Numbered from the stretch's first letter, positions 1 to 48,731 are shown. The stretch is DNA of 64,000 nt from Yuukianura sp. NJ FZ-2021 (GCA_046563655.1 JAJCTO010000009.1:496001-560000); one strand, 5' to 3'. Made by a program: numbers and translations. Notes: generated by a model from the letters alone, not told the origin.

Positions 1-402
1 CTGAATCCAGCTCCAAGTGCGCCGAGTTTTGTTTATATGTAGCTTATTGTATTTTTAGAGGACAGACGTTTGATTGCGTTCTGAATACGTTTAACACTAC
101 AGATTTAAAGTTTAACGATTTAATGGTTAGTTTGTTTTTGAAAAATTTTTTACTAAATTTATCTCAAAAAAAGTGTTTTATTGATAGGAAAAGTAAATGT
201 ATTCAGAATTCAAAACCAAAACTTGAGTGGAAATAAAAATCTACCCTCGCTAACATAACCTCAACTCTGTGTTCTAGTACCTTTATTGCCCTTTCGTGAG
301 GGTAAAGTTGAACTTCGACGGGAGTTGCATTTTTTGTAGTCATTTGCATTTTGGTCTGCAGAGGGAGAGGTCGATCACATTTTGTAGTGCAATAGAGTAA
401 TA

Positions 403-705
403 ATGGAGAACATTTTGTCTGAAAAGAACAAGGAAATTGAGACGTGGAAATTTATTGTCCGGTGCAATGAGGGAAGCATCTCCTACCTCAAAGACACAGT
501 ATACGAACTACGCTTGGATTTGGAAGAAGCTAAACTTCGAAACGAGGCACTCAAACAGGAACTGGAGGCGGTACGATCTCTGCTAAAGGATCACAAACCC
601 AGCTCTTTGGAGAAGCTCTTTGAGAACTTGAGCATTAGGCCTCTTTCTCCGCCTCCACTCCCTCCCATGCTCCCGACTCAACTCTTTTCCAGAAACAACA
701 ACTAA
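403..705 (+). CDS. Small coiled-coil protein with Pro-rich C-terminus, function unknown
   Basis: ATG ORF of 100 aa with heptad-like LRLDLEEAKLRNEALKQELEAVRSLL and PLSPPPLPPMLP. An AATAAA lies near 930. Confidence 0.55.
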   Translation: MENILSEKNKEIETWKFIVRCNEGSISYLKDTVYELRLDLEEAKLRNEALKQELEAVRSLLKDHKPSSLEKLFENLSIRPLSPPPLPPMLPTQLFSRNNN

Positions 706-894
706 ATTTACAACGAGTTAAAATTTTCAACAAGTGAAAGTGACCTTAGATTACAATAATTAATAGATGAGGCTCACGACTTTGTTTTACTCTTTTCTAG
801 AAACAACAACTAAATTTTCAACAAGTTAAAGTTTTCAACAAGTGAAAGTGACCTTAGATTACAATAACCAACAGACGAGGCTCACGACTTTGTT
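681..894. repeat. Diverged tandem duplication, 2 x ~108 bp
   Basis: ACTCTTTTC..AGAAACAACAACTAAATT..AAGTGAAAGTGACCTTAGATTACAATAA..GAGGCTCACGACTTTGTT starts at 681 and again at 789. Confidence 0.9.
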
Positions 895-953
895 GTAAGA
901 CAGGTTTTATTTACAGAATTTTGAAAAATAATAAAAAACGCACTTTCACTCAA

Positions 954-1786
954 TTATTGAAGCTCTTCAATTGGTGGACACTCTTGTAGAATCTCCTCAA
1001 AAACTGCAATCATGGCTCGAAGCTCCGCCTTGCTGAGTTGAATCTTGGGTCCTGCATAAAACATTTGACGTTTGAAATATTTCATAGTTTATTTGAGATT
1101 ATGTTACCATGGTAGTCGGCGTATTCTTGACTTGCTCCTGGAGAATTAATGTAAAAGCTGTAGAATCCTCCATTGGCATGAAACATTGGGCGAAGACGAA
1201 ATGTTGCGCTTTCAGTCATGAAAATGGATGCATCGTTCCAAAACTCTGCTTTCGTAGGTTTCAAATCCTGTGGCGGAAACACTGGAACTCCAGTTCGAAT
1301 TCCTTCTTCAATTTTAGGGAGAAGCTCCTCTTTCACAAAGTTAATTACTGCCTCAACTTCGCTAATCAGAATTTGCACAATTGACGGCTTTGTCCCAACA
1401 TTATCCTTCCGGAGAAATACTTTGAGAACCTTGAAAATAATAAACGGTTAGAATTTGGAACAAACATTTCTTGATAAATTAAAAAATAGTACATCGTTGT
1501 AGCTATCCAGTCCGAGGCGAATCAAAATCTTGCTAGACAGAGCAATCTTTTTTGTTATTGGATCTGCAAAAAATGCTTCCTTATTGTACGCACTGTACGG
1601 CACGCAGCGAATCCTTTCCATGAATGCAAAATGGTTTGAAGAGTTGGGGCCACGAAAGGTCATGGGAAGCTTTTCATAACCTTGCTCTTCTCCCTGTCCC
1701 CCGGTAATGAGTTCCCTTGCACGCTTCATCCCTGGTACGTTTTGCTGCGGTAACTGCGAAATCAATTCACCGACACTTCGGGTCAT
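954..1786 (-). CDS. 3-exon gene (~237 aa), putative tandem PC4/Whirly-like ssDNA-binding protein
   Basis: Exons are 1786-1493, 1429-1108 and 1051-954. GT-AG introns at 1492-1430 and 1107-1052 join ORFs 1448..1876 and 1082..1378 in frame, ending GPKIQLSKAELRAMIAVFEEILQECPPIEELQ*. A TATA box (CTATAAAA on the minus strand) lies near 1847-1840. The fold call is inference. Confidence 0.7.
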
Positions 1787-1922
1787 GTCACCTTCACCAA
1801 CCAAAACACAACTGGCCTTTACTTGCACCAGTTTGACCCTTTTATAGTAGATGGATGGGTCATAAAAGGTATACACACTGCCAAATTCTCGCCAGTGTGT
1901 GTCTAACCTTTGGTCAGTGAGG
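1787..1922. promoter_or_regulatory. Compact bidirectional promoter between the putative SSB gene and the helicase gene
   Basis: Only 136 bp separate the divergent ATGs (1786 minus, 1923 plus). There is a minus-strand TATAAAA near 1846-1840 and a plus-strand initiator-like TCAGT at 1914. Confidence 0.45.
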
Positions 1923-3817
1923 ATGTCAAAAAGAGATGCGAGTGGAAAGTGTCTAGTGACGTTGGAGTCTTATCATACATTTATAGATGAACAAAAACAA
2001 AAGGGAATTTGTAAAAAAAGAGATTTTGAAAAGGTGTCGGCTTTGCTTTTAAATAACGAGCAAAGACAAATTTATAATTTAGTTGAAGAGTGCATCAAAA
2101 ATAATTCCCGCCCAATACATGTCATATGCCCTGGGGCAGGTGGAAGTGGGAAAAGTTTTTTAATACTGTGTTTACAGAAATTGTTTCAAGAAAACAGAGT
2201 AAAGTCATTGTGTCTAAGTTTTACTGGGAGTTCGGCGTTTGTCATTTGCGGAAGGTAGTTTATGCCATTCTACAATTGACCCTTGGATTTACTCTATAAT
2301 CATTTTAGGACATTTCACTCTGCGCTATTGATGGGCTACAGTTATTCAAAGCGTCATCCTTCAGAAAATAGTGAAGCACTGCGAAAACTAATTCTAGGGT
2401 GCCAATTTGTGATTTTCGACGAACTTAGGTAAGACAATGTGTATAATCACCGTTTCCTGTATAAATTTCTGCCGTTTTGCAGTCTAATTGGTCTAAGTTT
2501 GTTTGACTACGCCAACGAGAGGCTCAAGTCGGCCCTACATTCATCTAAACCCTTTGAAAATTTGTCTGCACTAATTTTTGGAGATTTTAGTGAAATTACG
2601 TAAGATGGCATTTGACAACGTTGAAGTGCTACAACAATATTTAATTGCACTTTTTTTATAGTCCAGTGATGGACAAGCCAATTTATGCGTGCCCTAATCC
2701 AAACAACGCGCTGGAACTGAGCGGTGCTCAGGCATATGCCACATTTACCAAGGCAGTCTTTTTAAAGACAAACATGAGGCAGCAAGGACATGACGAAAAG
2801 CAGTTTAGGGAAATCCTGGATAGAGTGAGGCGGGGTTCTATAACTGACGAAGATGCAACAGTTTTATCTACAAGAAACGCCGAAAATTTGACAGACGAGG
2901 AGCTGTCTACTTTTGAAGATGCGACTTTTCTTTTTGCCGAAAAAAGACATTGTGCACGATACAATGAATTTCGACTGCAGAATCTCGGCTCGGATATTGT
3001 AAATGTAAAATCTCACGACAGTAAAGCTTGTCCGCGAGAACACATTTTGCAAATTGCCGCTGGAGCGCGCGTCGTATTAACTCGAAATCTCTGGATAGAG
3101 GCAAGTTTATTCTTAAAATAACCTAACCTATTCCCCCATTTCCATTTTAACTTGAACTAACATTTTAAACAGGGAGCACTTTTCAATGGCATGACGGGGG
3201 TAGTGATTGAAATTGCCAAGGACAAAAACGAATTTGGTCAACCAAAATACGTTTATTTTAGACCAGACAAGTATCTTGGGGAATATTATTTGCCTGCTCT
3301 CAGGAATCGCGTAATTCCACTAGTTCCAATCAAAGCGCCAATTTATGACGAAGAACTCAAAGCTACGTTTACTAGAGTTCAATTTCCATTGGAACTAGCT
3401 TATGGCGCCACTGTGCACAGGGCCCAGGGTTTAACTCTACCAAAGGTAATTATAATTAACAGTAATCCAACTATAATGATCCAATTATCTAATCTTGGAT
3501 AGGTTGTGATTTCGTTCCCAGCTGCTCCATCAAGGGATTCAATGTTCTTTAGAATGGCGCCGCAATTGTTTTATACTGCACTGTCGAGAGTCACTTCTTT
3601 GGGAGGGGTTGTATTTCCCAGCCCTTTCCGTATGGATATTGTCAACGGAGGACGATCAAATCACCTCCAAGACTGGCAAAGAGAGGAACAGCGCGTACAA
3701 GCTATTGCTCAAGGAAATTGCAACCCACAAAACAGTGTTATTGTTGAAAGTGGTGAAAGTGGTGAAAGTGAGAGTAACAATGACAGACACCATGGAGCAA
3801 CCTCAAGTGCAAATTGA
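1923..3817 (+). CDS. PIF1: PIF1-family (SF1B) DNA helicase, 6 exons, ~531 aa, apparently intact
   Basis: Exons are 1923-2254, 2309-2428, 2483-2599, 2662-3100, 3173-3445 and 3503-3817 (1596 nt, in frame). Motifs: GAGGSGKS (Walker A), GRTFHS, VIFDELS (Walker B), PFENLSALIFGDFSEITPV, LKTNMRQ, GARVVLTRNL..LFNGMTG, QFPLELAYGATVHRAQGLTL and YTALSRVTSL. Intron 4 is GC-AG. Confidence 0.92.
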
Positions 3818-4283
3818 CTACTCAAATTGTCATTTTGGCTTTATCTTGAGACCGGAAAAGTTGGAAATTGTTTTGGATTCTGGAATTGGAAATCTTGTTC
3901 GTTACAAGGCACATGAGATAGATCCGGACATAATGTTTCAGATTTTGGACGAAATTCAGTGTCGTATTGTGAGCGACGACATCCGAATGATGAGTAAGGA
4001 AAATATTCATCATTTTACAATGCGCAGTGGGACAAAAGGAATACCGACAACTCCAGGTCTCGTGATTCAGCACATTTTTAAAACTAGTGGAAATTCTATA
4101 GAAATTTACTCGATGGAAGACGGCCAAAGGGTTGATCGTTGCCATTGCGACGCAAGAGGAATTTTAATTGACATTTTCAAGTACTACGACATATTGTGTG
4201 AGCCTGGCTACGAGCTCTTCAAATGGACAACGTATAATGCCATGAATGCGGTAAAGTTTCCGTTCCCCAGCTCAGTGCTATAA
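3780..4283 (+). CDS. Hypothetical protein (~165 aa) overlapping the end of the helicase gene
   Basis: ATG at 3780 or 3792 within ORF 3609..4283. Globular-looking composition; no recognisable motif. Confidence 0.6.
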   Translation: MTDTMEQPQVQIDYSNCHFGFILRPEKLEIVLDSGIGNLVRYKAHEIDPDIMFQILDEIQCRIVSDDIRMMSKENIHHFTMRSGTKGIPTTPGLVIQHIFKTSGNSIEIYSMEDGQRVDRCHCDARGILIDIFKYYDILCEPGYELFKWTTYNAMNAVKFPFPSSVL

Positions 4284-4340
4284 ATAGCCCGCGCAAAGCC
4301 ACACTTGGTCCAGTGGTCAGTGAACTCTTGCCCAAGCAAC

Positions 4341-4505
4341 ATGAACCCGGAGCCTAAACGTGTAGTTGTATATGAGTGTGACTGTTTTCGCGAGAACCAC
4401 CGCCCGGGCTCAAATAGCCCACCTGGCGAAGATTTAGTGCCAGTGACAAGTGAACCTGTGACCGAGCAACATGGAGGAGACACCCAAACGCATCAAACAT
4501 CTTGA
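4341..4505 (+). CDS. Short hypothetical protein (54 aa) with CxC motif
   Basis: TATAAATA at 4279-4286 and TCAGT near 4317 precede ATG 4341. MNPEPKRVVVYECDCFRE resembles the start of the next ORF (MEETPKRIKHLDLACECLPR). Confidence 0.35.
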   Translation: MNPEPKRVVVYECDCFRENHRPGSNSPPGEDLVPVTSEPVTEQHGGDTQTHQTS

Positions 4506-5280
4506 CTTGGCGTGTGAGTGCCTTCCCAGAGTGACTAGATGCAGACTTCCCATTAACCTCTTTAGTTCCAAGTTTGAAAGTTACCACTTTAGTGTAGTAA
4601 AGTTAATTTGTGAAAAGTGTAAACAATTTTCCAAGAATAGCCACCCACGTGGACTTTTGCTCAAAGAGACGGCTTACACTTTATGGAATTTGTACAACAA
4701 TAAAGGGCAACATCCTCGAGTGTTGGTGTCCAGGATCAACCATCGCCGGGTCACCTTGGCTGCATTGGCACCATATATGCTGAAAGCGAAGAAAGTGTTG
4801 TGCATTATACCAAATTCCCGAATTCTTACTGAAATGATGAAAGCATTTGGACACCCAGCAGAAGAGAATGACGGTGTCTTTGACATTAACCTCTTGGTGG
4901 GACCCGGGCTGGAATTGTGGAAGGACCCTAGGTTCTCGAGATACGAAAAGATTGGCTTTGTCGGCAAAAACTTGGATTTTCCTACGGCAATGAATGACTT
5001 TCGACTAATCTTCATGATGAAAAACGACTTTGAAAACTACTTTTACGCCTGTTCATACGAACAACTTCAAGAAATTTCTTTGGTTATTGTGCCCAACTTT
5101 TTTGAAGTGCCGATGCTGTTTCTACACATTATGCAGGAACGTTTTCGCCATAAAATGTTACTGATTGGACACCCCTATCCAGACATTGCCAAACGTATTC
5201 CATTCAAGGTGGACATTATTTCGTGCCACATTCCCGAGGACGCGACGTTTGATTTTCCCGAGATAAAAATTAGTGTATAA
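4471..5280 (+). CDS. Degenerate SF2 helicase-like (DExD/H N-terminal RecA domain) protein lacking Walker A/B residues
   Basis: 269 aa. The segments RVLVSRINHRRVTLAALAPYMLKAKKVLCIIPNSRIL, ISLVIVPNF and KMLLIGHP fall in the order and spacing of motifs I, Ia, II and III, but GKT and DExH are absent. Confidence 0.5.
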   Translation: MEETPKRIKHLDLACECLPRVTRCRLPINLFSSKFESYHFSVVKLICEKCKQFSKNSHPRGLLLKETAYTLWNLYNNKGQHPRVLVSRINHRRVTLAALAPYMLKAKKVLCIIPNSRILTEMMKAFGHPAEENDGVFDINLLVGPGLELWKDPRFSRYEKIGFVGKNLDFPTAMNDFRLIFMMKNDFENYFYACSYEQLQEISLVIVPNFFEVPMLFLHIMQERFRHKMLLIGHPYPDIAKRIPFKVDIISCHIPEDATFDFPEIKISV

Positions 5281-5473
5281 AAGTGCAAAGTTTTTAGAGT
5301 ATTTAAACCTTGTTAGTTTGTAAGTTTTTTTGAAAATAAAAATTTACTTTTACCTTTAATTCAAAGGATACCGTTTTTTGTCGTTGTTTATTTGGAAACG
5401 AGAAAAGGTTAGGGTATAAAGTGTTAAAAGGGAGAGGAAAGTTAGAATATTGATCAGTCTGTACTTGGGGGTA

Positions 5474-5683
5474 ATGCAGCCCACCAGTAAGCACTCGGTT
5501 ATGCTGAATTTTCAGTGTATGGTGGAGCTGTGGCTTCTCATCTTATTGTTATTTCTGGTTGCCATTATACTGCTGTCTCGGCTTGGATTTTTGGATCCGC
5601 CCGAACCATCTGTTGACATGTTGCGCTTTGAAGCCTGGCTTGACATGGAAAGGAATCGGACAAGACACATTCCCACATTTTAG
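5474..5683 (+). CDS. Small single-pass membrane protein, paralog A
   Basis: MQPTSKHSVM..CMVELWLLILLLFLVAIILLSRLG..IPTF. A TATAAA at 5415 and TCAGT at 5454 lie upstream. Confidence 0.6.
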   Translation: MQPTSKHSVMLNFQCMVELWLLILLLFLVAIILLSRLGFLDPPEPSVDMLRFEAWLDMERNRTRHIPTF

Positions 5684-5855
5684 AATATTCAAATCTTCTT
5701 AGCTTTAAATTTTGAAAATGAAAATTTACGTTTACCTTTGCTTTGATGCCGTGTTTGTCGTTGTATATTTGGTAGGGAAATGAAAAAAAGTTTCGAATTT
5801 TTGCATGAAAGAAAGAGCAAAGGTAGAAGATTGGTCAGTTTGTATTTGGGAGTCG

Positions 5856-6041
5856 ATGGAGCCGGTCAGCAGGCACAGGGCCATGCCGCCGTGGTGCATA
5901 TTTGAGGCGTTGCTTCTCATTGCAATGATAATTCTGATTGCCATTCCACTGCTGTTCTACATGTCTCCACCTCCATCTTGTAATTGTGTGGACTTGCTCA
6001 AAAAACAAATGAATGCAACAAAAGTTATCCCAAAATTCTAA
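5856..6041 (+). CDS. Small single-pass membrane protein, paralog B
   Basis: MEPVSRHRAM..CIFEALLLIAMIILIAIPLLFYM..IPKF. The upstream DNA aligns with that of paralog A. Confidence 0.6.
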   Translation: MEPVSRHRAMPPWCIFEALLLIAMIILIAIPLLFYMSPPPSCNCVDLLKKQMNATKVIPKF

Positions 6042-6043
6042 AA

Positions 6044-6403
6044 ATGTATTGTCCAGTGACTGTGCAGCCGAGCAATTATCACGTGCTGGTTCGTCATTAT
6101 GTTGGAATATTCAAACGGTTTCTGAAAGCCGAGTATTGGCATTGGTCAGCGCATGGATACAACTTGCCAACTTTTGACAACGACTACCACCAAAGAATGT
6201 TCATGTTGGACACGCTTCATATAATCGGAAGAGACGTCTGCCGCACACTTCACCGCAAATCATCATACTTTGTCCTCAACGGCATGGCATTTGACCCTGA
6301 AGACTTGTTTTGTGAGTGTATCAGTGAAAAGGCACAAAACCTAATTGAAAATTTTGACCAAATTGGGTTTGAGCGACAAGAATACGTCAACCATTACTTT
6401 TAA
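6044..6403 (+). CDS. Hypothetical protein (119 aa, His/Cys-containing)
   Basis: AAAATG start 2 nt after the previous stop, and the frame is open to TAA 6403. Confidence 0.55.
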   Translation: MYCPVTVQPSNYHVLVRHYVGIFKRFLKAEYWHWSAHGYNLPTFDNDYHQRMFMLDTLHIIGRDVCRTLHRKSSYFVLNGMAFDPEDLFCECISEKAQNLIENFDQIGFERQEYVNHYF

Positions 6404-6464
6404 GTGTCAGCAAAACCAATTTGTGCGTCAGTCGAAAGGTGAAGGTGAAAGTGAAAGCATCAAA

Positions 6465-6956
6465 ATGAAAGCAGGCTTAATTGTAGTGTGTACATTTGTC
6501 ATTTGTGTTGGCGCCGCTTGCCAAAGTGTAGTGTACAATTGTGAGGCGTGTGTCAAAACCAACGCTCCGTTTGTAACTACTTGGACTATATTTTCTCGGG
6601 AACACACGTTTTGTGGAAACGAAACTCAAAAGTTTCGTCCAGGACAAATTCTTTTAAAAATAGCCAGCACGAGGAGAGACTGTGACTTGTTTCGGGACAA
6701 TAACGAATCCTACCTGGGCAGCCTCTGGACAGACGTCATGAATGCAACTGCCCTGGACCAACTGGGAAACGCACTCAAGGGCGTGTCCCCTGGAGACTCT
6801 AGTGTTCCCAACTGTCTCTTTACTCTGCTCGGGGCCGTCATCTCGGCCATTGCATTCTGGTTTGGCAAGCATATAAAAGACTTGACCTGTGCCCCGGTCA
6901 TTCAGTTTCTTTTGAGGCTTCGACCAGTGAACACCCATCCACCACCCACCTTGTAA
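6465..6956 (+). CDS. Type I membrane glycoprotein (163 aa)
   Basis: Signal-peptide-like MKAGLIVVCTFVICVGAA, a Cys-rich ectodomain with sequons NET, NES and NAT, and a TM segment CLFTLLGAVISAIAFWFG followed by K. CAAAATG start and AATAAA at 6968. Confidence 0.75.
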   Translation: MKAGLIVVCTFVICVGAACQSVVYNCEACVKTNAPFVTTWTIFSREHTFCGNETQKFRPGQILLKIASTRRDCDLFRDNNESYLGSLWTDVMNATALDQLGNALKGVSPGDSSVPNCLFTLLGAVISAIAFWFGKHIKDLTCAPVIQFLLRLRPVNTHPPPTL

Positions 6957-7187
6957 ACTTGTATGTAAATAAAAGCTGTCATTGTAACAGCGTTTAAACT
7001 TGAACTACAACAGTTGTTGACTTTTTTATTGGTAAGAAAAGGTGCAAGTGTATGTGAAAAGTGTTTAGTAGTGTCTCGACCTTTGAGTGCATAAGTGAAG
7101 TGGTAGGTGAAGGTGAAGTGAAAGTTCAAGAGTCAAGTGACTTGGTGCAAGTGAGTGAAAAGTTTAGTAATACTGTGTCATACCAAT

Positions 7188-10100
7188 ATGGCGTCGCTTC
7201 CAATTATGAGAATGAGGAAATCTTTTATGAAAAACAAAGTTTCGCATTCCAAGGTTAGTTTTTTAACTTTAAAGTAAAATTCAGATTGTAACATTGCTGC
7301 ATTGTAGTTTTCATGTGGATTTCAAAATGCAAGAGGTTCGTGCAAGTTTACATGTAAAAATTATCAAACTTTGGATGAACACACGGAAAGCCATCACAAG
7401 TGCTTTCACTGTGGGAAAAGTTTCATGAACAAAGGCAATGATCACAAGTGTAACCAAGTCGGCCGTGGCTCAAACAGATTTCTTGGACCCAAGCCTCAAC
7501 AAATTGACACTTCCGTCTTCCAGGAATCGACATTTTCCTGCCGTGGATCTGTGCTAGTTTATGTGCATCAGGTTCCAGACAGTGACCCGCCAGTCACAAT
7601 GGTGTCGTCATTGATGCAACAGCTCTATACACCATTTGTAAAACTTTTGACTCAGCTGCTCGGCCATTACAAGGGAATTCGAATTTCTCTCAAACTAATT
7701 GTGGACATGGTGGAGCTCAAGTACAACTTTAGATTCCCGGATGCTCCAATTTCAAGTCCATTTACCATTCTCACTCATGCAAATTACATTCCACGAGTGT
7801 TTCTGCAAACTACATCTTTTGTCATTGAATCGTTGAACCTATTTTTGCAAAGAGGAAGTGACTGGACAGTGGAACGTATAAAGCGTGTTGAAGTTCACTG
7901 CGGAATGTACAAACCATTGCCAGGGCGTGGGTACATTCCACTTCCAAAAGAGTTAAAGGGACGTCAAGGACTTGTCAACATAAAAACGTCCAATTGCTTT
8001 GAGCTATCCATTTACTGCAGTATTTTTGGTGACAGTATTGTAAAAGAAAAGCTACTGGAAAGAAGATTGATTGGAGCAAAACTTCCAAAAAATATTCCAC
8101 AGTTTTCCAACAGAGTGCTTTCAAGACCAGCTTCGTATGATGCTCTAGTTAAACTGGATCTCTTGAAGCTCATGCCCCAGTTGAGGAGAGATGGCGTAAC
8201 GATGCTTGACTTTGATGTGGTGGAGGAAATGAACAAGGAATTGTCTTTGAACTTGTATCGTTTAGACCACGGTCAGATTGAAATTTCTCGAATTGCTCCA
8301 ACTCTGAAGAAATACCACGTTAATCTTCTTCAAATTGAAAATGGGACATCGGCTCACTTTGTTTGTATAACCGACTTTGGAAAGTTTAATGCCAAATTTC
8401 AAAGAAAGAAAAAGTACGACTATTGCCCAAAGTGTCAAAAAAAGTTTCTTGCCAAACGCAAAAGTATTGATTCACACTTGTGCGGCACACAAATAGTGAC
8501 TTCAATTTCCAAAAAAAAAGTACTTTGAATTTGAAAAGTGGGATCAAATGCTTCAGTCCCCATTCCTAATGTACCACAAGTTTCATTACGTTAATGATGA
8601 AACTACAAACTCCAGTGACGCCCGAGTCCACTCGGAAAAGATTCCAGTTGGATTTTCGTATTTTTTAATGGAACAAGGAAAGGTTGTCGTTTCTGGTACT
8701 TATATTGGGCTGGACGCCATGCAAGCATTTTTAAAGATGGCTCTAGGATACGCAGATGAAGTTATTCACAAGATTAAAACAGTCAACTACCCTATACATT
8801 GGACGGCAGAGCAGCAACAGCGGCACCAAGAAGCGTTGGAATGCGAAATTTGTCTAGGTATGTTGGCAAATAGAGTAAGTTTGTCACAAATTAAAGTTGT
8901 AATTCTTAAATTTAGGAAAATTTCACGAAGCCGACTTGAAAGTGGCTCATCATAACCACCATCTCCAAGAAAATAACTTCATCTCCACCATTCATTCATC
9001 CCACAACTTGCAAATTAAGCACAAGCACTTTCTTACATCCTTTTCTTTTGCGGAAAGCCATGAATTGAAACTTTTGGTTTCAAAAACTCTACACATGCTT
9101 GACAAAGACCCATGGACAATTACGACCAAAGAGGGGAAGGTGTTGGGCCTCATATTTGAAAAAAAGCTCAAAATTAACCAAATTCAAAACTTTCGACCGG
9201 ATGTGACCATTGACCAGCTGATTGATGAGCTAAAGGTTTCAGACTCTACATTTCCTGTGCTTGGAATGTTTCTAGACTTTCTACCTCAACATCAAGTGCA
9301 ATGGTTTATCGATGGCAAAGTGAAAATGCCACAGTTTCTCTCTGCTACGGACTTTCTCCTACACCACTTGGATCCGCTACAAGTGGAAGAGTCACAGTTT
9401 CGTGCACTAATTGGTGGTGCATCTGTGGAATCTGAAATTGTACTGAAAAACTATGCCGGGGGAGACTTGGGCCGTTACATTGAGCTTCTGATGATGGTCA
9501 ACTGTGCTCTGACGGCAGAAATCTTTGAAAAGCAACGAAGCGTCAACTGGACAGAATTTGGTCTTGAACTGGCCGGTAGCTGGACAGTCAATGGCTAGTC
9601 TTTCAACGCAGCTGCGTTACTCGGCAGAGTAAAAATTGAGTACTTGGCCGATGAAGAGTTTATTGCAGACGTTGAGAACGGGCTGATGGCTGGAATTCAA
9701 GTGGTCAACAAGCGCAAGGTCATTTGTAACACGGATCGTTTTGGGCCAGAGTACTTTGACCCAACCAAGCCAAGAATTGAATGCCTAAGCTGTGACGTCA
9801 CTGGCAGCTACCCTTCCGTGTGTCTCGGACCGCTTCCTGTTGGAGATTACAGACGCATGTCACAAGAAGAAATTGATGCTTTTGACTTTGTGAACCCTCC
9901 GTGGAACGAGTCCAGAGGTTATGTTTTTGTCTGTGACCTCCACTACCCAAACGATGTCCACGATAGACTATCTGCATTTGTGTGTCCGCCAGAGAAACGA
10001 CGGATAGATTTGGAAACGCTCTCTCCGCTCCAGCAAGAATTTGTCACGTCAACAAACAAAAATTTGACACCAGAATACTTGTTACTAACTCTATGGGACA

Positions 10101-11086
10101 AGAACGGTATAGTTTTGCACCACCAACTTTTGGCAATGTCGCTCCGTTTGGGCGCGGTTCTCAAGAAAGTTCATAGAGGGTACAGTTTTGCTCAAGCGCC
10201 AGTTTACGCTGGATATGTGAGACACAACTTGCAAAAACGACTAGAAGCCAAGACAAAAACTGAAAAGGAACTTGCAAAACTAGCCAACGTATCTCTAAGT
10301 GGCAAATTTCTTAGTGACACTGGAGCATACAGCAGATCACAACTCTGTAAAACTGCAAGTGGTGCCAAAAGACTGTTGGCATCTGACGTTTTTGAAAATT
10401 TTGAAATTATAAACCAAGATGTCACGTTATTTCAATTGAAAAAAAAAGCAGTCAAGGGGAAAAATTTAAAACTAATTGGATTATGCATCTACAACATTTC
10501 CAAGGCAGTGTTGTATTCTTATGTTTACGATCACATTTACCCAGCATTCAACTACAAAATGGAAATGATAATGTGCAATACGGATTCATTTTTTGGCGAA
10601 TATCAAGATGACGATTGCACATTTTTGAAAAAGTTGAAATCCTTGGCGCCAATTTTTGACTTTTCGGACCAAGAAGGGGAACTTTTTGACGACAGGAACA
10701 AAGGAAGGCCCGGTGTTTTCAAAATATGCAACTTGAACGTTCAAGAGGCGTATTTCATTTCTCCAACACAATACAGCCTTCAACTTTTTCCAGAAAGAGA
10801 TGGATTTAATTGGACTGAAAAGCTTAAAGTAGGGGGGCTGGATCGACAATTTGCCGCTACTAATCTAAGGCACCAACAGTTCAAGGATCATGTGGAGAGG
10901 GAGGAGTTGGAGCAAGACATTGTTTCTGTCGAAAGCCTACGGTTCACCGGAGAGACAATTAACAATATAAAAATTAATCGAAAATCCATCGGAGCATGGG
11001 ACTTGAAGAGGTTCTTTGTTTCTAATCGAGAATCCTATGCTTTTGGACATTTTCGACAAATCAAGAACAATGTACACCCCAATTAA
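7188..11086 (+). pseudogene. polB: Polinton-type protein-primed family B DNA polymerase (~1260 aa reconstructed) with 2 introns, 1 frameshift and 1 premature stop
   Basis: Introns are 7254-7307 and 8858-8915 (GT-AG, in frame). N-terminal Zn fingers precede the Polinton hallmark FLQRGSDW..YKPLPGRGYIPLPKEL..VNIKTSNCF. An endonuclease-VII-like segment reads CEIC..KVAHHNH..HNL. Pol motifs are DVTGSYP, KLANVSLSGK and CNTDS, with C-terminal DLKR..AFGHF. Lesions are an extra A in the A9 run at 8511-8519 and an in-frame TAG at 9596-9598. Confidence 0.9.
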
Positions 11087-11220
11087 CAGAAACTCCAGGA
11101 CACCTGGCAGCGTCCTGGAATTAACAAAACCAACCGAGACTGACGCCAAGGTCTTATTTGCATTCTAGTCAAGTCCAGGCAAAGTTCAACGTCAAACACC
11201 CAACCAAGTCAATACTTGCA

Positions 11221-11746
11221 ATGGAGGTCATTTTGTGCAAAGTAAAGGAAGATTTTGAGAGCGGCCATGTTAAAGAAATCATGGCGGCTAGCATGGTGGA
11301 GAAGAGAGCCAGGATAACCACAAAACATGAAGAACACACCGAAGCCTATTCCATTTCGGAATGCTTTCTAAAGCTTCTCGAAGAAAATGGACAAAAGGGA
11401 TTGGAAAATCAAATTCTAGGAGCCAAAGTTATTTTGTGTATTGACGCACAAACAAAGTCCATTTTGAAATTAGCAAAATTTGAAAATGAAAAGAAGCTTC
11501 AACTTTTGCGAACTTTGATGGTGACCCCGAGCGCCTGCGTTGACCCAAACTTGAACCGATATCAGTTTGGATTAATACTAAAAGAGGCAAGAAACTCGAT
11601 TTGGAAAAACCAAGTGTGGACACGGCTTCTCGGCAAACGAATTAAAGGTAATTTATTTCCATTTAAAACTAGTGTCATCACAATATGGTACGCTACAATG
11701 CTCTTGACTATTTCCATTACAAAATATTTTTGTAGATTCTAAATGA
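11221..11746 (+). CDS. Hypothetical protein (~145 aa), possibly with a terminal intron at 11648-11735
   Basis: ATG 11221 in ORF 11158..11742. A donor AAAG/gtaatt and acceptor ttttgtag give the ending ..KRIKDSK*. Confidence 0.5.
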
Positions 11747-11853
11747 TAGGGCAAAAACTCTCCAGAATCCGAATTTACAGACAGCTTAACACTAGCTCCC
11801 TCGTAATAACCCCTACCAACTAAAACTTTGTAAAAGGTATCAAATTCTTGAAA

Positions 11854-12429
11854 CTAAACATTAATATTAGTCAACTCTAGTTGACAACGCAAATTTTTTA
11901 CAATGATTGCTTTGGTCAAAATTTCGTCTTTAATACGATCTAAAAGTTCAGATTCGCTAATTGCCAAAACTGTACATAACCTATTTTGCCACTTGAACTG
12001 TGGAACGTCATACTTGATGAGGTCTTGCGCAGTTTTCCCAATTAAAGCGGATTCGGGCTAAAAAAAATTCAATGTTTTCAACTTTGGAATTTTAACAATG
12101 TAGTGTTTCAACTTACGCAACAATGCCGTTTACGGAAAACTTTGTATTTTTCCCTTGGGGTTTTAATTAACCCGGGCGGTATATACGCAATAGAGATTCT
12201 CGGGACGTATTTTGGTAATATTGTTCTAGTATTTTTCGGGACCGGAAGTGGTAGGACACCCATTTCATAATTATCGGCTGAAGCGTCCCAGTCTTCATCG
12301 ATCTATTTTTAAATTTAGTTTTGCGTAAAAATTTTTAATACTTTTTGAAAATTTTTGCGGATCTTTTACCTGTTTGGCTACTTTTGAACGAGTGAATTTA
12401 CTAGGACCATCATTCCATTCAGCAGCAGC
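11854..12429 (-). CDS. Spliced hypothetical gene (at least 3 exons; 5' end unresolved), absent from the ORF track
   Basis: Exons 12429-12370, 12302-12117 and 12057-11854 are joined by phase-0 GT-AG introns and stay open: AAAEWNDGPS..KQ/IDEDWDAS..RKRHCC/PESALIGK..ELTNINV*. Confidence 0.5.
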
Positions 12430-12522
12430 CTAAAACAAATTAAACTACCCATTATACTTGAACTCATTTTACTTTATTTTGTAGCGACACCAGTACCGCG
12501 ATACGGAAAAAATTTCCAAGCT

Positions 12523-12852
12523 ATGTCAAATCGGCCGGCGGAACCTAACCTTTCTTCTGATTCGGAAACCGACAGTGAGCCAGAAAGTGAAAATAAGGAG
12601 AATGACATTGAGCAAGGACGAGCCAACTTGACCTTTCCCCAATACAGCCCAATATCATCGTGCGGAAGTCCGGAAGTGCTGAACCCAGTTTCAAGTCCGC
12701 TAAAATCCCTCAACAACATCTCCATTATCCCACTACCCCCATGCTATTCGGAGGAAATGTATTGTCCTGAATACCCAGAAATGTACTTAGGATCTTTCAT
12801 GGGACACTGCTACACTGACAAGGCTCCCAATAGTTTTTACAATAGCTTTTAA
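12523..12852 (+). CDS. Ser/Glu/Pro-rich low-complexity hypothetical protein
   Basis: 109-aa ATG ORF with acidic SSDSETDSEPESE. An AATAAA lies near 13015. Confidence 0.45.
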   Translation: MSNRPAEPNLSSDSETDSEPESENKENDIEQGRANLTFPQYSPISSCGSPEVLNPVSSPLKSLNNISIIPLPPCYSEEMYCPEYPEMYLGSFMGHCYTDKAPNSFYNSF

Positions 12853-13231
12853 GTTTTGTGCCATTTAACTAATTTTGTGACTAGTTTTAAATTGTTTTTC
12901 ATTCATTTTAAAATGTTAAAGTTTGAAAAGTTTTAAACTCATTTTTCATCACTTGCTAGTCATAACAAGTCAATTTTCCTTTCCCCCTTGTATCTCTAGT
13001 ATTAGATTTCATTGAATAAATACACACATTTGTACAGCAAAACTGCTGACGTTTGAAAAACAAAATCATTTTGGCGAAAAGAAACGTGAGAAGGAAGCAA
13101 TTTCAAAGGGCCAGTATTTTATGGCCATTTTCATTATTTTAAAGATAGTCAACTAGGAGCTTTGTTAAATTTCAGTCCATTTTCAAAATAGCTTTTGAGT
13201 GTGGCGGGCAGTTCTTAAAATCAGTCTAACA

Positions 13232-13832
13232 ATGGGTAAGTTGAAAAATCATCTCTCAATTCTCTCAAATTTCATAGCCTATAGAGTTAAAAATTTATAA
13301 TTTAGAGTGCCAAAAAATACAAAATTGCGTGGACTGTGTGAAAACGGCCTGTTCTTGGTGGGTAAATGTCGGAGGTCAGCAGGGCTGTACCTCCGACATT
13401 GACAGTATTCCCAACATCGAGTTCCTTGTATCGGAAGGCGACCCAGGGGATTGTCCTTCGCCAGACCCCGCAGCTGGGGGGGATGTGGAAGTCGCTGCCC
13501 TGGCTACTACCACGGGAATTCTTTCATGTAAGAAGACACGTTTGAACTTTAGGCTTACTCGGGCTGATTAGGTTAGGCTTAACATAACCTTACTAATATT
13601 AAGTTAAATACTAAGATAAACACTACGTTTCAATTATTTTATTCCAGTTGCATTTCTGGTTGCGATTTTGTTGGCAATCATTACATGGTGGAAACGGCGC
13701 AGAGGAACTGCAGAAGGAAACACGGCGGAGCCAGCAGTTAGAGCAATCAGACGGCGCATGCGTGGGGCACGAAACGATCTAGAGTTGCAACCAATTAACC
13801 TTGACGGCGCCATTGATGACAGCATGCTCTAG
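13232..13832 (+). CDS. 3-exon single-pass membrane protein with PSI-like Cys ectodomain (~136 aa)
   Basis: Exons are 13232-13235, 13306-13527 and 13648-13832, giving MECQKIQNCVDCVKTACSWW..GC..DCP..GILSFAFLVAILLAIITWWKRRR. Splice sites are canonical (gtaagt/tttag and gtaaga/tccag), and TCAGT lies just upstream of the ATG. Confidence 0.72.
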
Positions 13833-13905
13833 GCTTTGCAAAATTCATCTAAAGTTGAGATTTTATTACAACTTTGATTAAATAATACTCTTTGCATTTG
13901 AACAC

Positions 13906-16299
13906 TTAAAATCTTTTGAATCTTTTTCGAAGCTCTTCTTCACGCCGTTCAGCCTCCCTCTCGACCTGCCTGCTGCGCTCACGGCTCAAGCGCAGCATAA
14001 ACTCGGCACATTCAACGGAAACCCGCTCAGAATCTTCAGAATCTTCAGACTCTGAAGATTCTGAATCTGACATTACCCTACCTTTGACAATTCGAGGACC
14101 GGAAGGAGGAATGGCTGTTTTTTCAGTTTTTTTTAAAATTCTGGTTGGCTCAAGTGCCAACCGACGTTGTGCAGAAATGGATTGCACAACTTTTTCAATA
14201 TCCTTTTGCGCCAAAATTTCCTCCAGCCTGTCCTCCCTATCCTTCCCACTTAATTGCTCAAGCGTTTTTATCCATTGCCACAGCAATGGAGATTCGGCCT
14301 GTTGTTCGCTAAAAGTGCCTTTAGGTACTTTGCTTTTAGGTAATACGGGAGGCGGAGCGGCTGAAGTATTACTACACATTTGCATAGGCACATTATCACA
14401 CGCTAAACTATTACATGATTCTTGTGCATCGTTACATAATTGCATCTCGGGTGGTTGATGCTTCTCGTAACGATGCATTTTTAAATTTTTAATTTTCGCG
14501 TCTTCCAGTTTTTTCATTTCCATATCTTCAAATTCCATGACGATGGAGGAAGCAACATTTGGATGCTGTTTTCTAAACTCTGACACCTGCCAGGACAGAA
14601 TCCTATCAAGCTTCTTTAAGTCTCGCCTAGCAGCTTTCAAGTGAGGCGTCGGATTAAAGGTTTTGTCAGCCTAAAATAACAATTATTTAAAAAAAAACTA
14701 ACCTACCCTAACATAAAATTTGTCTAAGAATACTTGTCAAGTACCTGACTCTTTTCCCAGATTTTTTGTTTGCGTAATGCAATGTTATATAGCATTTCGC
14801 CTTGGCGAAATTCAGAATGCGTCGGTTTTGGCTGTTCTCCTTTTTTGCCTTTTTTCTAAAAAAAAATAAATTTTGAAATTTTGAAAATTTGGAAGTAGGG
14901 GAATCTTTACGCACTATACTCAAAATTAACTTAACTTAACTTAAGTATCTAACTTGAAATTAAAACTAAAGCAACAACTAATTTTTCAATTTCATTTTGA
15001 AAAAAAAAGCTTCACAAAAAAACTTTTGTGTCTATATTTGGAAACACTTGGTCCAGGCGTTTGGTACAAAACTGACCTCTGACCTTTCCAGTGTTAATGG
15101 CTTTCGACTTTCTACATTCACTTTTATGGCACTTTTATGTACATGTTTGTTTTACTTTAAGTGTCTGGTGACTAAGCATTATTGGTTCTAGTGCAGCTCT
15201 TTCGCAAAAAAAAATACATTCCGAACAGTATATGTTAATTGTAGTTTTTTTAAATCTAACTTTAGAATCGGGTTCAGCACACTCGAATTAGTCTAGGAAA
15301 TGAAGTTTATGCAAATCAAAGCGAAAAAAAAATTTCGATTTTTTTTTTTCAAAATTTTGAGAATTGAAAGCAGTCGAAAGTTGGGACTCCGCGGCTAAAT
15401 TCTTTCATTTTACGGTGACTAAATTTTGCAAACTTGAAAATCGCAACAACCTTTCAGCTATAAACTAACCTAACTCATAAAGTCCATTTGAATTAATCTG
15501 AATATGGGAGTGAATTTTAGGTCATTTAAGTTTAATACAGTAAAGCCTCCCATTTTGCAACATGCTCTTGTTAGTGGAAAATTTTTACGGCAACTTTAAA
15601 CCTTGATTTCTTAAGCAAAATTTAAACGTTCTTGCAAAAATTTCGAATTTGAGGTTATTTAAGTTTAATACAGTAAACCCTCTCGTTTTGCAATATACTC
15701 TTGTTAGCGGAAATTCTTTACGGCAACATTAAAGCTTGATCTCTTAACAAAACCTACAGCTCTTGCAAAAATTATAGTTTTACGGTATCTCAGGAAGAGA
15801 GGGAGAAAAAAAGTTGCACAATGAGAGGTTTTACTGTAGGCATATGAGCCAGTGTTACATGCATGCGCAGTAATTGACCTGAGATGAAACGTTTTCAGAA
15901 CGTTGGAAACAAAGTTAAAGTTCTGCTCTATGCCAAGGAGAGGCAAACGTAAAAGTTGCGCAATGAGAGGTTCTACTGTAGAGCAACTAAAACTTTCGCC
16001 ATTAAAAGTTGTACTAAACTTAACCTACACCCCCCCCCCCCCCCCGTTCCCATTTTAATTGAAAACTATGCGGCCGAGATCAATTACCTACGAGAGGCAA
16101 GATGCTCAAGCCCATCCAAACACATTTAACATTTTCACAAACTTAACCTACCCCCCTCCCGCCCCCGCCACAGACATTTCCCTTTAGTGTAGACAGAAAA
16201 AAATTTGTTTTTAATTTAACCATAAATTAAAAAAAATTTGCGAATTACCTTTCCACGCTTCCGGCGGCGCTTACCGGCTCCTGGAGCGCAAGAATCCAT
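13906..16299 (-). CDS. 3-exon charged/coiled-coil protein with basic NLS-like N-terminus (~300 aa)
   Basis: Exons 16299-16249 (MDSCAPGAGKRRRKRGK), 14855-14745 and 14670-13906 join at phase-0 GT-AG junctions in frame with ORF 13906..14640. The first-exon assignment is less certain. Confidence 0.55.
15536..15980. mobile_element. Tc1/mariner-pogo-type MITE relic with duplicated ends
   Basis: Left ends TA-CAGTAAA(G/C)CCTC lie at 15536 and 15669 within a ~133-bp direct duplication. Right ends GAGAGGTT(T/C)TACTG-TA finish at 15838 and 15980. Confidence 0.55.
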
Positions 16300-16589
16300 T
16301 TTTAAAACTTTCACTTTTTTCGTCTTTCCAACGCTTGAAATGACGTTGTAGGAACCACAAAATCACTTGAATGCTTCTGCACTTTCACCGTCTTAAACTC
16401 TCACAAGTTGCGTTGGTTTCGTTGGACTCAAAAACTGAAATGGCATTTAAACTGACAAAGTAAAATTGCAAACCTCTTGGTTCAACGTCAATTTTTAAAA
16501 TGAATTTCAAAATTTTTTGAACATACTGACCTTGTTTGAAGCTATAAACGAAACATGACCTCTTCCCGTTCATTTTCTAGGAGACCATA

Positions 16590-17316
16590 GATCGACTCCC
16601 CTCCGAACCGGATCAGAACCATGCATCGGTAACCAATAAGCATACATACCGATTTGTTGCATTCCGCAAGCATGGATCGGCTACCCTCCGGATCGGATCA
16701 GAATCGTGCAGCCAATCGGTAGCCAAACTTTAGAATGTTCAAATTAGATCCCAAATTTAATTCGAAGTGCACCGATCCGGGTAGCGACTCCTTAAATTTT
16801 TTGATTGGTACCGATTCGAAATAAGCATGCATGGAACGCAATGCCAATTTGTTGCATTCCCTGAACGGATCGGCAGTGTACTATTGCAGAGTACTTTAAA
16901 CCCGCTCACGTTCCCCGATCCCATTCTATCCCCGATCCAATTCTTTATTATCTGGGACTACGTTTTCCGCTCGCAGCTGGCAAGAATCGGGAGCGGCGAA
17001 TTGATAATTGCAGGCGAGGGTCACTAATGCTAAATAAAAGTTAACGTGGCTTAGGATAATTTTTGTTTCGGCTACGTTGCATCGGTATTGAATTCACAGG
17101 TTTTCATTAATTAGGCTTATTACCGAATGCAATTATTAATAAAGTTATGCTGCCGATCCGGTCAATTGGTCAATTTAAGTGCGTACACTTTCCTAAATCC
17201 GGTTTGCCTTTTTTTTACCACGAATCGGCTCCGGATCATTTGTGATTGGAGACCGGTTCGATCCAAATTTACTAAATGTAAAAGCATATTTCGGATTGGG
17301 CCGATCCGGTAGGGTA
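16590..17316. repeat. CCGATC/GATCGG motif-rich region, possible MITE
   Basis: Many short inverted and direct CCGATCCG-like motifs. TACCCTCCGGATCGG (16682) and CCGATCCGGTAGGGTA (17301-17316) form a near-perfect inverted pair. Confidence 0.4.
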
Positions 17317-17875
17317 CGCAACTATGGTTGGCATTCGGGCCTCATAATTTGTACTTTTTTTTGTTCTTAAGAGAAACCATTGTCAACTCCTCTCTCATGC
17401 ATCCCTTCTCTCCTATTTCATCTTTTAAACTTTGAACCCACTGTGTTTTACAATCTTAAATTACTACTTTGAACAATACCAGTTTACATTTTCTTTTCAA
17501 ACCATGAGAATATTACAGACTTCAGCAGCTCCTTAAAATTTTTCAACAACGCTATTCAATTGAGTGATGAATGAATAACTAATTCAATGAAACGGACAAT
17601 TTCCCACGTTCCCTTTTTTTTTCATAAATTTGGTTTGCTTTTATTCAACTTTTTAATTATTAATCTTATTTAATTAATTAGTTTAATTTAAACCTTTTGT
17701 TTTACTAAATATATTTATTAACCAATTGTGTGGAGTAAAATGGGGGAGGCGAGTTTTTTGATTCCTTTTTATTAAATCATTCCACAGCCTTGTTTGGGAG
17801 GGGGGGGGATGAAAAAAAAAGGGGGGGGGGGTGCCATTTTGAAAAAGTGGAAATTCCCTTCAAGATGACTTAGCT

Positions 17876-44800: not shown

Positions 44801-45084
44801 GTATTTTACCACAGAGAAATCCCCGCTGCTACAAGTGGCAGCTCTGACTGACATGCAAACTTATAGTAGCCACCATAGCCTCCATGAGAAGGAGCAAACA
44901 GATATTTTGGAAGCAATCTTGTACTAGAGAACGGTTTGATCAACAAAATGTGTAATGTCTACTCATTTTCGAAAATTTGTTGAATTAGAAACGGGGTTAT
45001 GAACTGCTCGGCACTATTTTCTGTTATCGTCAAAGGAAGATTATCGGTACAACGTATTTTACCACAGAGAAATCCCCGCTGCTA
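17876..45084. repeat. Satellite DNA array A, 252/253-bp monomer, ~105 copies, with higher-order repeats
   Basis: The monomer CAGATATTTTG(G/A)AAGCA..GGAGCAAA recurs with a 253-bp period, and copies differ only at a few diagnostic sites. Confidence 0.99.
43904..44632 (-). mobile_element. 5'-truncated non-LTR retrotransposon (CR1/L2/Jockey-group 3' end) inserted in satellite A
   Basis: The minus-strand ORF has the RT C-terminal signature RRCIRYIFGLKKRDCV..VQRLNWL and a stop at 44158. The 3' UTR ends in AATAAAA plus a (TTCAAA/TTCAAAA)n tail. GAGAA is duplicated at 43899-43903 and 44633-44637. Confidence 0.85.
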
Positions 45085-45622
45085 ATAGAATTTTATCTAC
45101 ATAAATGTGAATGTAATTAAGAAGTTATTCGGTCGGGTCACACATGTCAATCATGACACCAAGCAAAGTGGCTGTGGGTGTTGAGGTAAAATAATCTACG
45201 TCGGCCAGTTTTTCAAATTCGGTTTCCAGCGGAATATAATCGGACTGGGTCAAAAGGTCAACGTCAGTTCGGTTCGTTGTGACTAGAAGTTTGAAATAAC
45301 CAATTTTGTGACCGCATGCGTACGGTTTGAACGCTGTGGTAATTGCAATGTCAAGGTGAGGGCATTTGATCAAGTCTGGGGCCATTCAGCAGGATTGGTT
45401 GTTGTATGTGTAATGTATACAAGGTGGATCTTCTTGGTAGATTCGATAACGAGATCCCCAAACAATGACCGAAGTCGTGAGGTCACAAAATTCTGTTGCG
45501 ATGTCACAAGGTGCAACTGTTGTGGAGTTCGATTTGAGAAGTCACCCAGCACAGACTTGTCACCAAGTTCCTATCCTTCAGCCTCTATTGTCACCAAGTT
45601 ATTCTAGCTATTAAATCCTGCA

Positions 45623-46100
45623 ATGGAAGTTGCTACATTTTGCTTAGAAAGTCTAATTAGTCTAATTGGAACATTCGAATTCTCTGCCGCTGACCTCGCA
45701 CAGCTTACCAACCTAAAAAATATTTTCGAACTCAAATTTTCAAAAATTCTGGAATTGTCGCTTCCGCGGGGCAACACCACGCCCAAAAATGAAAAGCATC
45801 TCAACATTGTCATCCACGGTCTCTCACTACATCAGCTTCCACGGAATCAATTTCTAACTGGATTCAACTTCAACTGAAAGTGAAAGTAACAGTTATTCGT
45901 GTACGTGCATTTGGAAAAAAAGCACCATTTTAGTGTCACTAGGAACACAGCATGACAAGTCCAAAATTTTCCGACAATGCCACCTTTTGAAAGGATCTAG
46001 CATAGGCATCTCAGATGACCTCTCGCCCCAAGACAGACTGCGAAGTAAGTCAAAAAAATTTTCGGAAACGTCCCTCGTAATCGAAACAAATAGCTCCATC
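45623..46100 (+). pseudogene. Decayed LINE ORF1-like (RRM/CTD) remnant
   Basis: NIVIHGL and IFRQCHLLKGSSIGISDDLSPQDR are typical LINE ORF1 motifs, here split across two ORFs. No APE or RT domain follows. Confidence 0.55.
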
Positions 46101-48554: not shown

Positions 48555-48731
48555 CTGAATTTCTGTATAGTTTAGTATTACACTTTTACACTTCAATAAA
48601 ATCTAGACTTGTAAATTTTTTGTCACATTGAAAAAACATTTATTAAATTCAAATTGTAAATTTAATCAAAATTCAAACACAAAATAATAAATCAATGTTG
48701 TATGAAACTGTAAACTTTGTTGTGTTGAAAT

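Follow-up and report, generated by a model that had tools for sequence, protein, structure and literature searches.

Polintons (Mavericks) are defined by a protein-primed DNA polymerase (pDNAP, here pPolB) together with a retrovirus-like integrase (PMC5499653). Their polymerases carry a terminal-protein (TP) domain derived from the LF/PAD (little-finger) domain, followed by a vOTU domain, the exonuclease (Exo) and the polymerase (Pol) part (PMC11161782), and in Polinton-2 of Hydra magnipapillata a gene for a PIF1-clade helicase of superfamily 1 lies immediately upstream of the gene for the polymerase (PMC5499653). HNH insertions were described for Polinton pPolBs of the pPolB2 class from nematodes and oomycetes (Jeong et al. 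2023, PMC10748475). It was also proposed that loss of the exonuclease goes along with gain of a helicase (PMC11161782). We analysed 64,000 nt of DNA from Yuukianura sp. NJ FZ-2021 (GCA_046563655.1, JAJCTO010000009.1:496001-560000), in the following called the window. The region from about position 950 to 11100, possibly with more DNA on either side, probably belongs to an element of the Polinton/Maverick lineage that has integrated here, and would be a part of it. We concluded that the locus is a partial, defective copy in a PIF1-carrying branch of this lineage and no new kind of system.

Gene models were derived by reading the raw sequence together with open reading frame (ORF) tables and scripts that fitted GT/GC...AG introns to open frames. 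Three of them would form the replication module:

954-1786, minus strand: gene B, 237 aa, exons 1786-1493, 1429-1108 and 1051-954, divergent from PIF1
1923-3817, plus strand: PIF1-like SF1B helicase, 531 aa, intact, six exons, introns 2255-2308, 2429-2482, 2600-2661, 3101-3172 (GC-AG) and 3446-3502
7188-11086, plus strand: pPolB, introns 7254-7307 and 8858-8915, disrupted twice, by a change of frame within nine consecutive A (8511-8519) and by an in-frame TAG codon (9596-9598)

The first-pass annotation had named a Polinton-type pPolB, and both homologues and predicted folds confirmed this. With the 495-aa exon as query, an exhaustive search by HMMER retrieved 3807 representatives at E ≤ 1e-3, of which 187 reached E ≤ 1e-30; the best match showed 37% identity (E 1e-72). 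Pfam gave no direct match to the window copy; among its 25 top relatives PF03175 was present in 6, Endonuclease_7 (HNH-type) in 10 and C2H2 fingers in 2. The only named relatives were "uncharacterized" loci of the molluscs Biomphalaria glabrata and Mya arenaria. A PDB sequence search with the exon gave nothing useful, and scans of IMG/VR with the relatives P0003, P0004 and P0006 found no further relatives. An alignment scan of IMG/VR returned only a distant virophage-like contig (L001, 23% identity). This contig of 14197 bp encodes a Sputnik-type major capsid protein, a distant pPolB of 1299 aa and three collagen-repeat proteins in a row.

An AlphaFold 2 model of the N-terminal 403 aa of pPolB (7308-8516; 60-row alignment) had a pLDDT of 83 and showed two predicted domains, both of which were resolved by VIA-align with Z values that are middling by the tool's own note. 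Residues 59-202 resembled the LF/PAD domain of the Y-family polymerases iota, eta and IV (Z 8.3-7.8, root-mean-square deviation 2.7-2.8, 98-104 residues aligned), and residues 212-358 resembled OTU proteases (Z 5.9-5.0, about 100 residues aligned, 9 OTU entries at Z ≥ 5.0). Foldseek against the PDB returned only weak Y-family polymerase rows (E 2e-3, TM 0.2). In the part with the OTU fold one Cys is invariant and one His nearly invariant in the 60-row alignment. The modelled N-terminus thus appears to be a TP domain followed by vOTU, which is the published Polinton layout (PMC11161782). An HNH-like block (CxxC...HHNH...N) lies between ExoI and ExoII. The polymerase has the TP-vOTU-Exo-Pol architecture of Polintons, though the catalytic residues of its exonuclease are replaced.

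The frame of pPolB changes inside the run of nine A, and since the flanking codons align to relatives, this change is not an intron. The in-frame TAG occupies an aligned residue position. No row falls at the run of A or at the TAG among the contig rows listed. We rejected a 37-nt "intron" across the run of A, which would delete codons that align to relatives and is shorter than the other introns (54-76 nt), and a 23-nt "intron" across the TAG, which is too short. A code with TAG as sense codon was also rejected: TAG terminates gene E, and the stop codons of the remaining models in 1-11100 are TAA or TGA. As judged from the assembled sequence, this pPolB copy is broken and the element copy would be non-autonomous.

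The window polymerase falls into a clade in which the exonuclease is altered throughout. In a FastTree phylogeny of 153 sequences (152 retrieved proteins and the window protein with X at its two breaks; 457 columns) it grouped with P0003, P0005, P0006 and P0007 at a support of 1.0, and the sister group consisted of P0009, P0004 and P0013 (support 0.875). Motifs were compared in the 60 of the 153 aligned rows that were displayed. At least 90% of these 60 family members keep D..E of ExoI, ExoII, Y...D of ExoIII, the Cys, His and Asn residues of the HNH block, motifs A and B, and DTDS in motif C. The catalytic residues of ExoI, ExoII and ExoIII are replaced in all three clade members that are long enough (window, P0003 and P0006). 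In all five members the aromatic residue of motif B is changed to Ser, Thr or Ala, and motif C reads NTDS, HTDS or YTDS. In the sister clade live exonuclease motifs occur together with PIF1. Since polymerases known to be active, among them those of mavirus and pipolins, can likewise lack the first Asp of motif C (PMC11161782), the polymerase of the window clade may be active, and its exonuclease is predicted to be inactive.

The helicase gene was supported by profile and structure matches. Exon 1 matched Pfam PIF1 with E 5e-5 and 23.4 bits, below the cut-off of 25.9, and exon 5 matched solved PIF1 helicases (best 5o6b, E 1.9e-4). The spliced protein aligned to the PIF1 protein of a metagenome contig, L002, in blastp (E 3e-23, 7e-22 and 3e-16). 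The translation contains what we take to be Walker A, DExx, GDxxxxxPV, TVHxxQG and YxALSR motifs, and these motifs together with the matches place it in the PIF1 family. A PDB sequence search with exon 1 gave nothing useful, and a word-based homologue search with exon 4 was empty, which is only weak evidence. The gene is open over 531 aa once its five introns are removed, so that the earlier description of PIF1 as intact stands.

L002, a JGI metagenome contig of 10.5 kb, codes for P0004, a pPolB 31% identical to the window exon. It carries a 188-aa ORF (minus strand), PIF1 (plus; 37.3 bits in Pfam, above the cut-off) and pPolB (plus), which is the order and orientation of B, PIF1 and pPolB in the window; protein identities for the three genes are 28-41%. 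Gene B is collinear end to end with the ORF at L002:698-1306 (minus), which has the same position relative to PIF1 (BLASTP E 0.001 for the C-terminal and 0.065 for the N-terminal half). Gene B had no Pfam, PHROGs or PDB match. Because L002 keeps this order and orientation, PIF1 is a real partner of the polymerase and not a chance neighbour. A second contig, L004, encodes a pPolB 71% identical to that of L002, and an rve integrase (E 8e-12) follows directly after it. Since this sister-clade contig has an integrase directly after pPolB, the wider lineage fits the Polinton definition. The proposal in the first-pass annotation of an undescribed system with its own helicase module was therefore not sustained: PIF1 upstream of pPolB is already published for Hydra Polinton-2, and rve is present in L004.

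Two further observations were made on these contigs. L002 harbors an IAP gene with BIR (E 2e-15) and RING domains at 4382-5134 (minus strand) between PIF1 and pPolB, where the window has six other small genes. In L004 an ORF of at least 348 aa (3372-4415) lies directly after the integrase; it has no Pfam, PHROGs or PDB sequence match and could be a structural gene of the lineage.

The region is rich in predicted introns, with 16-17 short ones of the GT-AG or GC-AG type in 6-7 genes. PIF1 has five (54, 54, 62, 72 (GC-AG) and 57 nt), pPolB two (54 nt at 7254-7307 and 58 nt at 8858-8915), gene B two (63 and 56 nt), gene K three in phase 0 (67, 59 and 48 nt), genes N and L two each, and gene J none or one. 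Seven of these are backed by homology. Removal of all five PIF1 introns restores the helicase motifs and the blastp alignment to the L002 protein, removal of 8858-8915 from pPolB gives the exact CxxC-x14-HHxH spacing of the relative P0003, and removal of 1430-1492 from gene B gives collinearity with its uninterrupted L002 homologue. The remaining introns (K, N, L, J, the first of pPolB and the second of B) are predicted from ORF logic. The fourth PIF1 intron (3101-3172) has a GC donor, and its removal joins the conserved "...RNLWIE|GALFNG...". PIF1 and pPolB of L002 are also interrupted, at other positions, and P0006 and P0003 are uninterrupted ORFs; therefore, introns appear to have been gained or lost lineage by lineage. 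We looked for introns common to the window and L002 and discarded the nearest pair (after the DExx motif), which differs in position and phase. The earlier count of at least six genes with 13 or more introns thus holds as a prediction. That these introns restore the reading frames exactly did not hold for pPolB, with its frame change in the run of A and its in-frame TAG.

Six small genes are located between PIF1 and pPolB; listed with them is the span that holds most exact sites of a common upstream motif:

3780-4283, plus strand: gene C, 167 aa, ATG inside the end of PIF1 and 8 nt after the GTGAAAGTGA motif, no family match
4471-5280, plus strand: gene D, 269 aa, orphan, no Pfam or PHROGs match
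5474-5683, plus strand: gene E, small single-pass membrane protein, repeat family D3
5856 (or 5805) to 6041, plus strand: gene F, small single-pass membrane protein, repeat family D3
6044-6403, plus strand: gene G, 119 aa, ORF without family match
6465-6956, plus strand: gene H, 163 aa, N-terminal signal-like hydrophobic segment, Cys-rich middle part, C-terminal membrane segment
1788-7116 (span): GTGAA[AG]GTGA sites at 3762, 6439, 6445 and 7107 (plus) and 1788 (minus), five of the seven exact sites

In total, positions 1-17875 hold about 15 gene models (A, B on the minus strand, PIF1, C, D, E, F, G, H, pPolB, J, K on the minus strand, M, N, and L on the minus strand), in line with the first description of about 15 tightly packed genes. 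Packing is tight in the left 11 kb, as in a mobile element or virus. The PIF1 stop codon (3817) lies beyond the ATG of gene C (3780), so that the two genes overlap, the ATG of G (6044) is 2 nt beyond the stop codon of F (6041), and 136 nt separate the divergent genes B and PIF1.

Genes E and F form a tandem duplication, with 69% identity across 292 nt (E 6e-28). A single-sequence fold of gene D reached a pLDDT of 41 and was unusable. Hydrophobic segments in the models of E, F, H and N agree with the four transmembrane proteins reported at first. A role of these proteins in an envelope or at a surface was not corroborated; they have 62-163 aa and no family match. The tentative gene N shows a Cys pattern like that of the PSI domain (Pfam PSI, E 0.052, below the cut-off). 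Likewise, a putative single-stranded DNA-binding protein (SSB) was not recovered: no ORF matched an SSB, OB-fold or PC4 family in Pfam or PHROGs, and when gene B and its L002 homologue were combined in a profile, the best PDB match had an E of 1.6.

The motif GTGAA[AG]GTGA has 7 exact sites in 1-12000 compared to 0.093 expected (Poisson 1e-11), of which about five are independent, as two belong to the same tandem repeat and two others overlap each other. Two sites (734 and 842) are inside 108-bp repeats. The distance from the motif to the ATG is 1 nt for B, 8 nt for C, 10-16 nt for H and 71 nt for pPolB, suggesting a promoter or leader element. When one mismatch was allowed, the whole window had 14 sites compared to 10.0 expected, which is not significant. 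The motif is absent from L001, L002 and L004 and occurs once in L003.

Several results weigh against assigning the region to one Polinton-type element. Among 85 stop-to-stop ORFs of at least 60 aa in 1-17900, none matched rve, a capsid, an FtsK/A32 ATPase or Ulp1/adenain in Pfam, PIF1 and UvrD_C_2 being the only meaningful matches. PHROGs revealed no integrase, capsid, packaging ATPase or protease, its only two matches belonging to gene J. There were no candidates for terminal inverted repeats (TIR) in 1-17900; the element may continue to the left beyond position 1, past which one Logan contig of run X1 extends by about 2.7 kb. The polymerase tree comprised the retrieved proteins and the window protein only, named Polinton, adintovirus or bidnavirus references not being among them. 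At the E values given above, the homology of gene B is weak and leans on synteny. A word-based search of a large database with gene D was empty, in itself weak evidence. L002 lacks homologues of genes C, D, E, F, G and H, and GTGAARGTGA is missing from it as well. Finally, the copy structure differs between the two sides of the region. The block from B to H (854-6999) is one Logan contig of 6146 bp without differences and with a depth of 63.1, other unique contigs having 52.7-56.6. Summed Logan depth, which according to the tool's own warning does not equal copy number, was 187-232 over 7201-9000, 331-452 over 9601-13200, 520-1170 over short repeats in 14401-16200 and 60-89 over 16201-17400. 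Variant copies begin near 6970, and 8870-9473 is missing from one of them. In a second organism, a contig of 6.2 kb spans only 9687-12880, with about 4-8% of the letters different. Copy boundaries suggested by depth are at about 6970-7000, 9600-9690, 13200 and 16270. The depth pattern indicates that the pPolB side is all that the further copies of this genome have in common with the window. On a cautious reading, this side exists in several partial copies and the block from B to H is unique at ≥ 85% identity; this left block could thus be a separate or domesticated unit. We set aside the joint 10641->14865, whose sides measure 21 nt, together with further joints of less than 30 nt per side, as repeat artefacts.

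The copy structure is one argument for a domesticated module, in which B-PIF1-C-D-E-F-G-H would be host genes under selection, derived from an old Polinton, and pPolB a decaying remnant or an unrelated later copy. All models of the single-copy block are open and pPolB is broken, PIF1 has five host-type introns at positions unlike those of L002, and the molluscan relatives of pPolB are annotated as ordinary loci with isoforms. However, the overlapping and 2-nt-spaced genes and the motif common to B, C, H and pPolB suggest a single unit. Since one motif site (7107) is on the multi-copy side and others (1788, 3762 and 6445) are on the unique side, the motif ties the unique block to the multi-copy side. 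Moreover, the order B-PIF1-pPolB is kept in L002, and the close relative L004 retains its integrase. We consider domestication unlikely, although it survives best among the alternatives to an integrated Polinton-lineage element.

The missing hallmarks could also mean that the virion module was dropped and that TP-pPolB, PIF1 and gene B form a capsid-less, self-replicating unit resembling a plasmid or transposon, with the small membrane proteins as accessories. No virion gene was found in 17.9 kb of the window or in the 10.5 kb of L002, specifically no Pfam or PHROGs match to a jelly-roll capsid or penton in 1-17900, and pPolB elements without capsid are known among linear plasmids and transpovirons (PMC11161782). 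Yet Polinton capsids are poorly covered by Pfam models, each of the two sequences is truncated on one side (the window at its position 1, L002 shortly behind pPolB), and the ORF of at least 348 aa after the L004 integrase could be structural. The tblastn search with the L004 integrase found nothing in 1-18000, a locus cut at position 1; the same search showed no similarity to genes J, K and M, and the reading of these genes as a decayed integrase was dismissed. Loss of the virion module is, in our judgement, somewhat less likely than domestication.

That a solo pPolB fragment with its right flank was duplicated in satellite-rich DNA and landed beside an unrelated PIF1 cluster, for example a Helitron-derived one, would agree with the depth steps near 6970-7000 and 9600-9690, the adjoining 26 kb of 253-bp satellite and the lack of detected termini, but the three-gene order recurs in L002, the upstream motif occurs on both sides of the depth boundary (7107 versus 1788, 3762 and 6445) and no Helitron Rep domain was found in the 85 ORFs of 1-17900, which makes such a chance neighbourhood very improbable.

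For the integrated Polinton-lineage element, replication would depend on the conserved trio of gene B, a PIF1-type 5'-3' helicase and a TP-vOTU-Exo-HNH-Pol polyprotein. By analogy to published Polinton pPolBs, a hydroxyl group of the TP domain would serve as primer where DNA synthesis starts, at both the ends of the linear DNA; the vOTU protease would cut TP from the polymerase, and the polymerase would copy the element. The proofreading exonuclease of the clade is without its catalytic residues, and unwinding would presumably be helped by the separate PIF1 helicase. The genes would be transcribed by the host machinery and spliced, with GTGAA[AG]GTGA just upstream of the start in B, C, H and pPolB as a possible signal. 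The data show the gene models with their breaks, the homologies and the synteny, the folds of the domains, the lost motifs and the depths of the contigs; priming, processing, helicase cooperation, the promoter role and the host group are what we infer from these comparisons.

Compared to the described systems, the window shares with Hydra Polinton-2 the helicase gene upstream of the protein-primed polymerase (PMC5499653), and with Polintons/Mavericks in general the TP-vOTU-Exo-Pol polymerase (PMC11161782) and, through the sister-clade contig L004, rve beside pPolB. It differs by six small lineage-specific genes between PIF1 and pPolB (Polinton-2 being compared by description), by the lost catalytic residues of the exonuclease in its clade, and by integrase, capsid, ATPase, protease and TIR not being found within the window. 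The pPolB2-HNH class, compared by description, likewise has an HNH-type nuclease domain inserted in a Polinton pPolB, but the named relatives of the window polymerase are molluscan, and for mollusc pPolB2 PMC10748475 reports an insertion of VSR and not HNH.

Loss of exonuclease function in the presence of a helicase is also known for mavirus (pPolB and a separate S3H) and for the pPolB-S1H fusion of Polinton-like viruses (PLVs) and transpovirons, and a replaced first Asp of motif C is a further common feature, one that according to PMC11161782 is also seen in active polymerases. Unlike the fusion ("Tlr1-like helicase"), PIF1 of the window (1923-3817) is separate and 3.4 kb upstream of pPolB (7188-11086), and a region of exonuclease length with dead motifs is kept. 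In contrast to these systems, the sister clade of the window has live exonuclease motifs together with PIF1. Bidnaviruses and adintoviruses, again compared by description, have Polinton-derived animal pPolBs too, but the window has no parvovirus-type NS1 and no adintovirus virion genes.

Four features are new in this locus: exonuclease residues lost across the clade beside a separate PIF1, the conserved gene B, the many introns and the shared upstream motif. No publication with this combination turned up in our searches, which did not extend to the supplements of PMC10748475 and PMC11161782; these may list the clade or other PIF1-bearing Polintons. The clade provides an independent, testable case for the proposal that exonuclease loss and helicase gain go together (PMC11161782), the helicase here being a separate PIF1, and because the sister clade has PIF1 and still live exonuclease motifs, the order of events is available. 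A Polinton-type replication module with many host-type introns and a common upstream motif also bears on the question of expression while the element is resident in a genome. A bolder reading, to which we give only slight credence, is that this Polinton branch stands midway on the path proposed for mavirus and PLVs: PIF1 came first and proofreading was then abandoned, and a self-contained module of TP-pPolB, PIF1 and gene B may persist with small membrane proteins and without a capsid. If true, it would be a counterpart, in animal genomes, of transpoviron-like capsid-less replicons.

The remaining features of 1-17875 lie to the left of gene B and to the right of pPolB:

403-705, plus strand: gene A, 100 aa, coiled-coil ORF, weak YscO match below the cut-off, candidate member of the element
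681-896, no strand assigned: two tandem 108-bp copies, each with the GTGAAAGTGA motif
11221-11742, plus strand: gene J, 145 aa with the intron 11648-11735 or 173 aa without it, in the multi-copy part
11653-12429, minus strand: gene K, at least four exons (12429-12370, 12302-12117, 12057-11902 and 11853-11653)
12523-12852, plus strand: gene M, 109 aa, acidic, Ser-rich, no family match
13233-13832, plus strand: gene N (tentative), exons 13233-13236, 13305-13527 and 13648-13832, small membrane protein
13906-16300, minus strand: gene L, 308 aa, basic N-terminus, introns 14671-14744 and 14856-16248, no family match, candidate member of the element

The two PHROGs matches of gene J were to families of unknown function (E 0.006). 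For gene K no start codon was found, and it had no match in Pfam or PHROGs. The window is eukaryotic DNA, with a G+C content of 39-42% across the first 12 kb; the host would be a eukaryote with short introns and probably an invertebrate. Rfam and tRNA scans of 1-18500 were empty. On the plus strand, a frame (3-236) is already open where the window begins and has a good GT donor at its end (position 126), so that a gene probably extends to the left of the window from there.

The long intron of gene L (14856-16248) carries high-copy repeats. Short repeats at 14860-16000 have a summed depth of 520-1170, many contigs end at 14868, 15324, 15357-15360 and 15980, and these repeats are probably small transposons. 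Two 108-nt copies (15512-15619 and 15645-15752) lie inside the same intron. Directly at the right edge of 1-17875 a satellite of 253 bp begins (17876-43903; 103 copies, 96% matches), for which the Logan contig depth is about 35,000-40,000. Between this and a second satellite, positions 44000-49400 contain long ORFs of 367, 218, 210 and 183 aa without Pfam match. A gap of 100 N (49416-49515) is followed by the second, compound satellite (49516-64000), in which a 59-bp unit is nested in higher-order periods of 199, 258, 317 and 457 bp.

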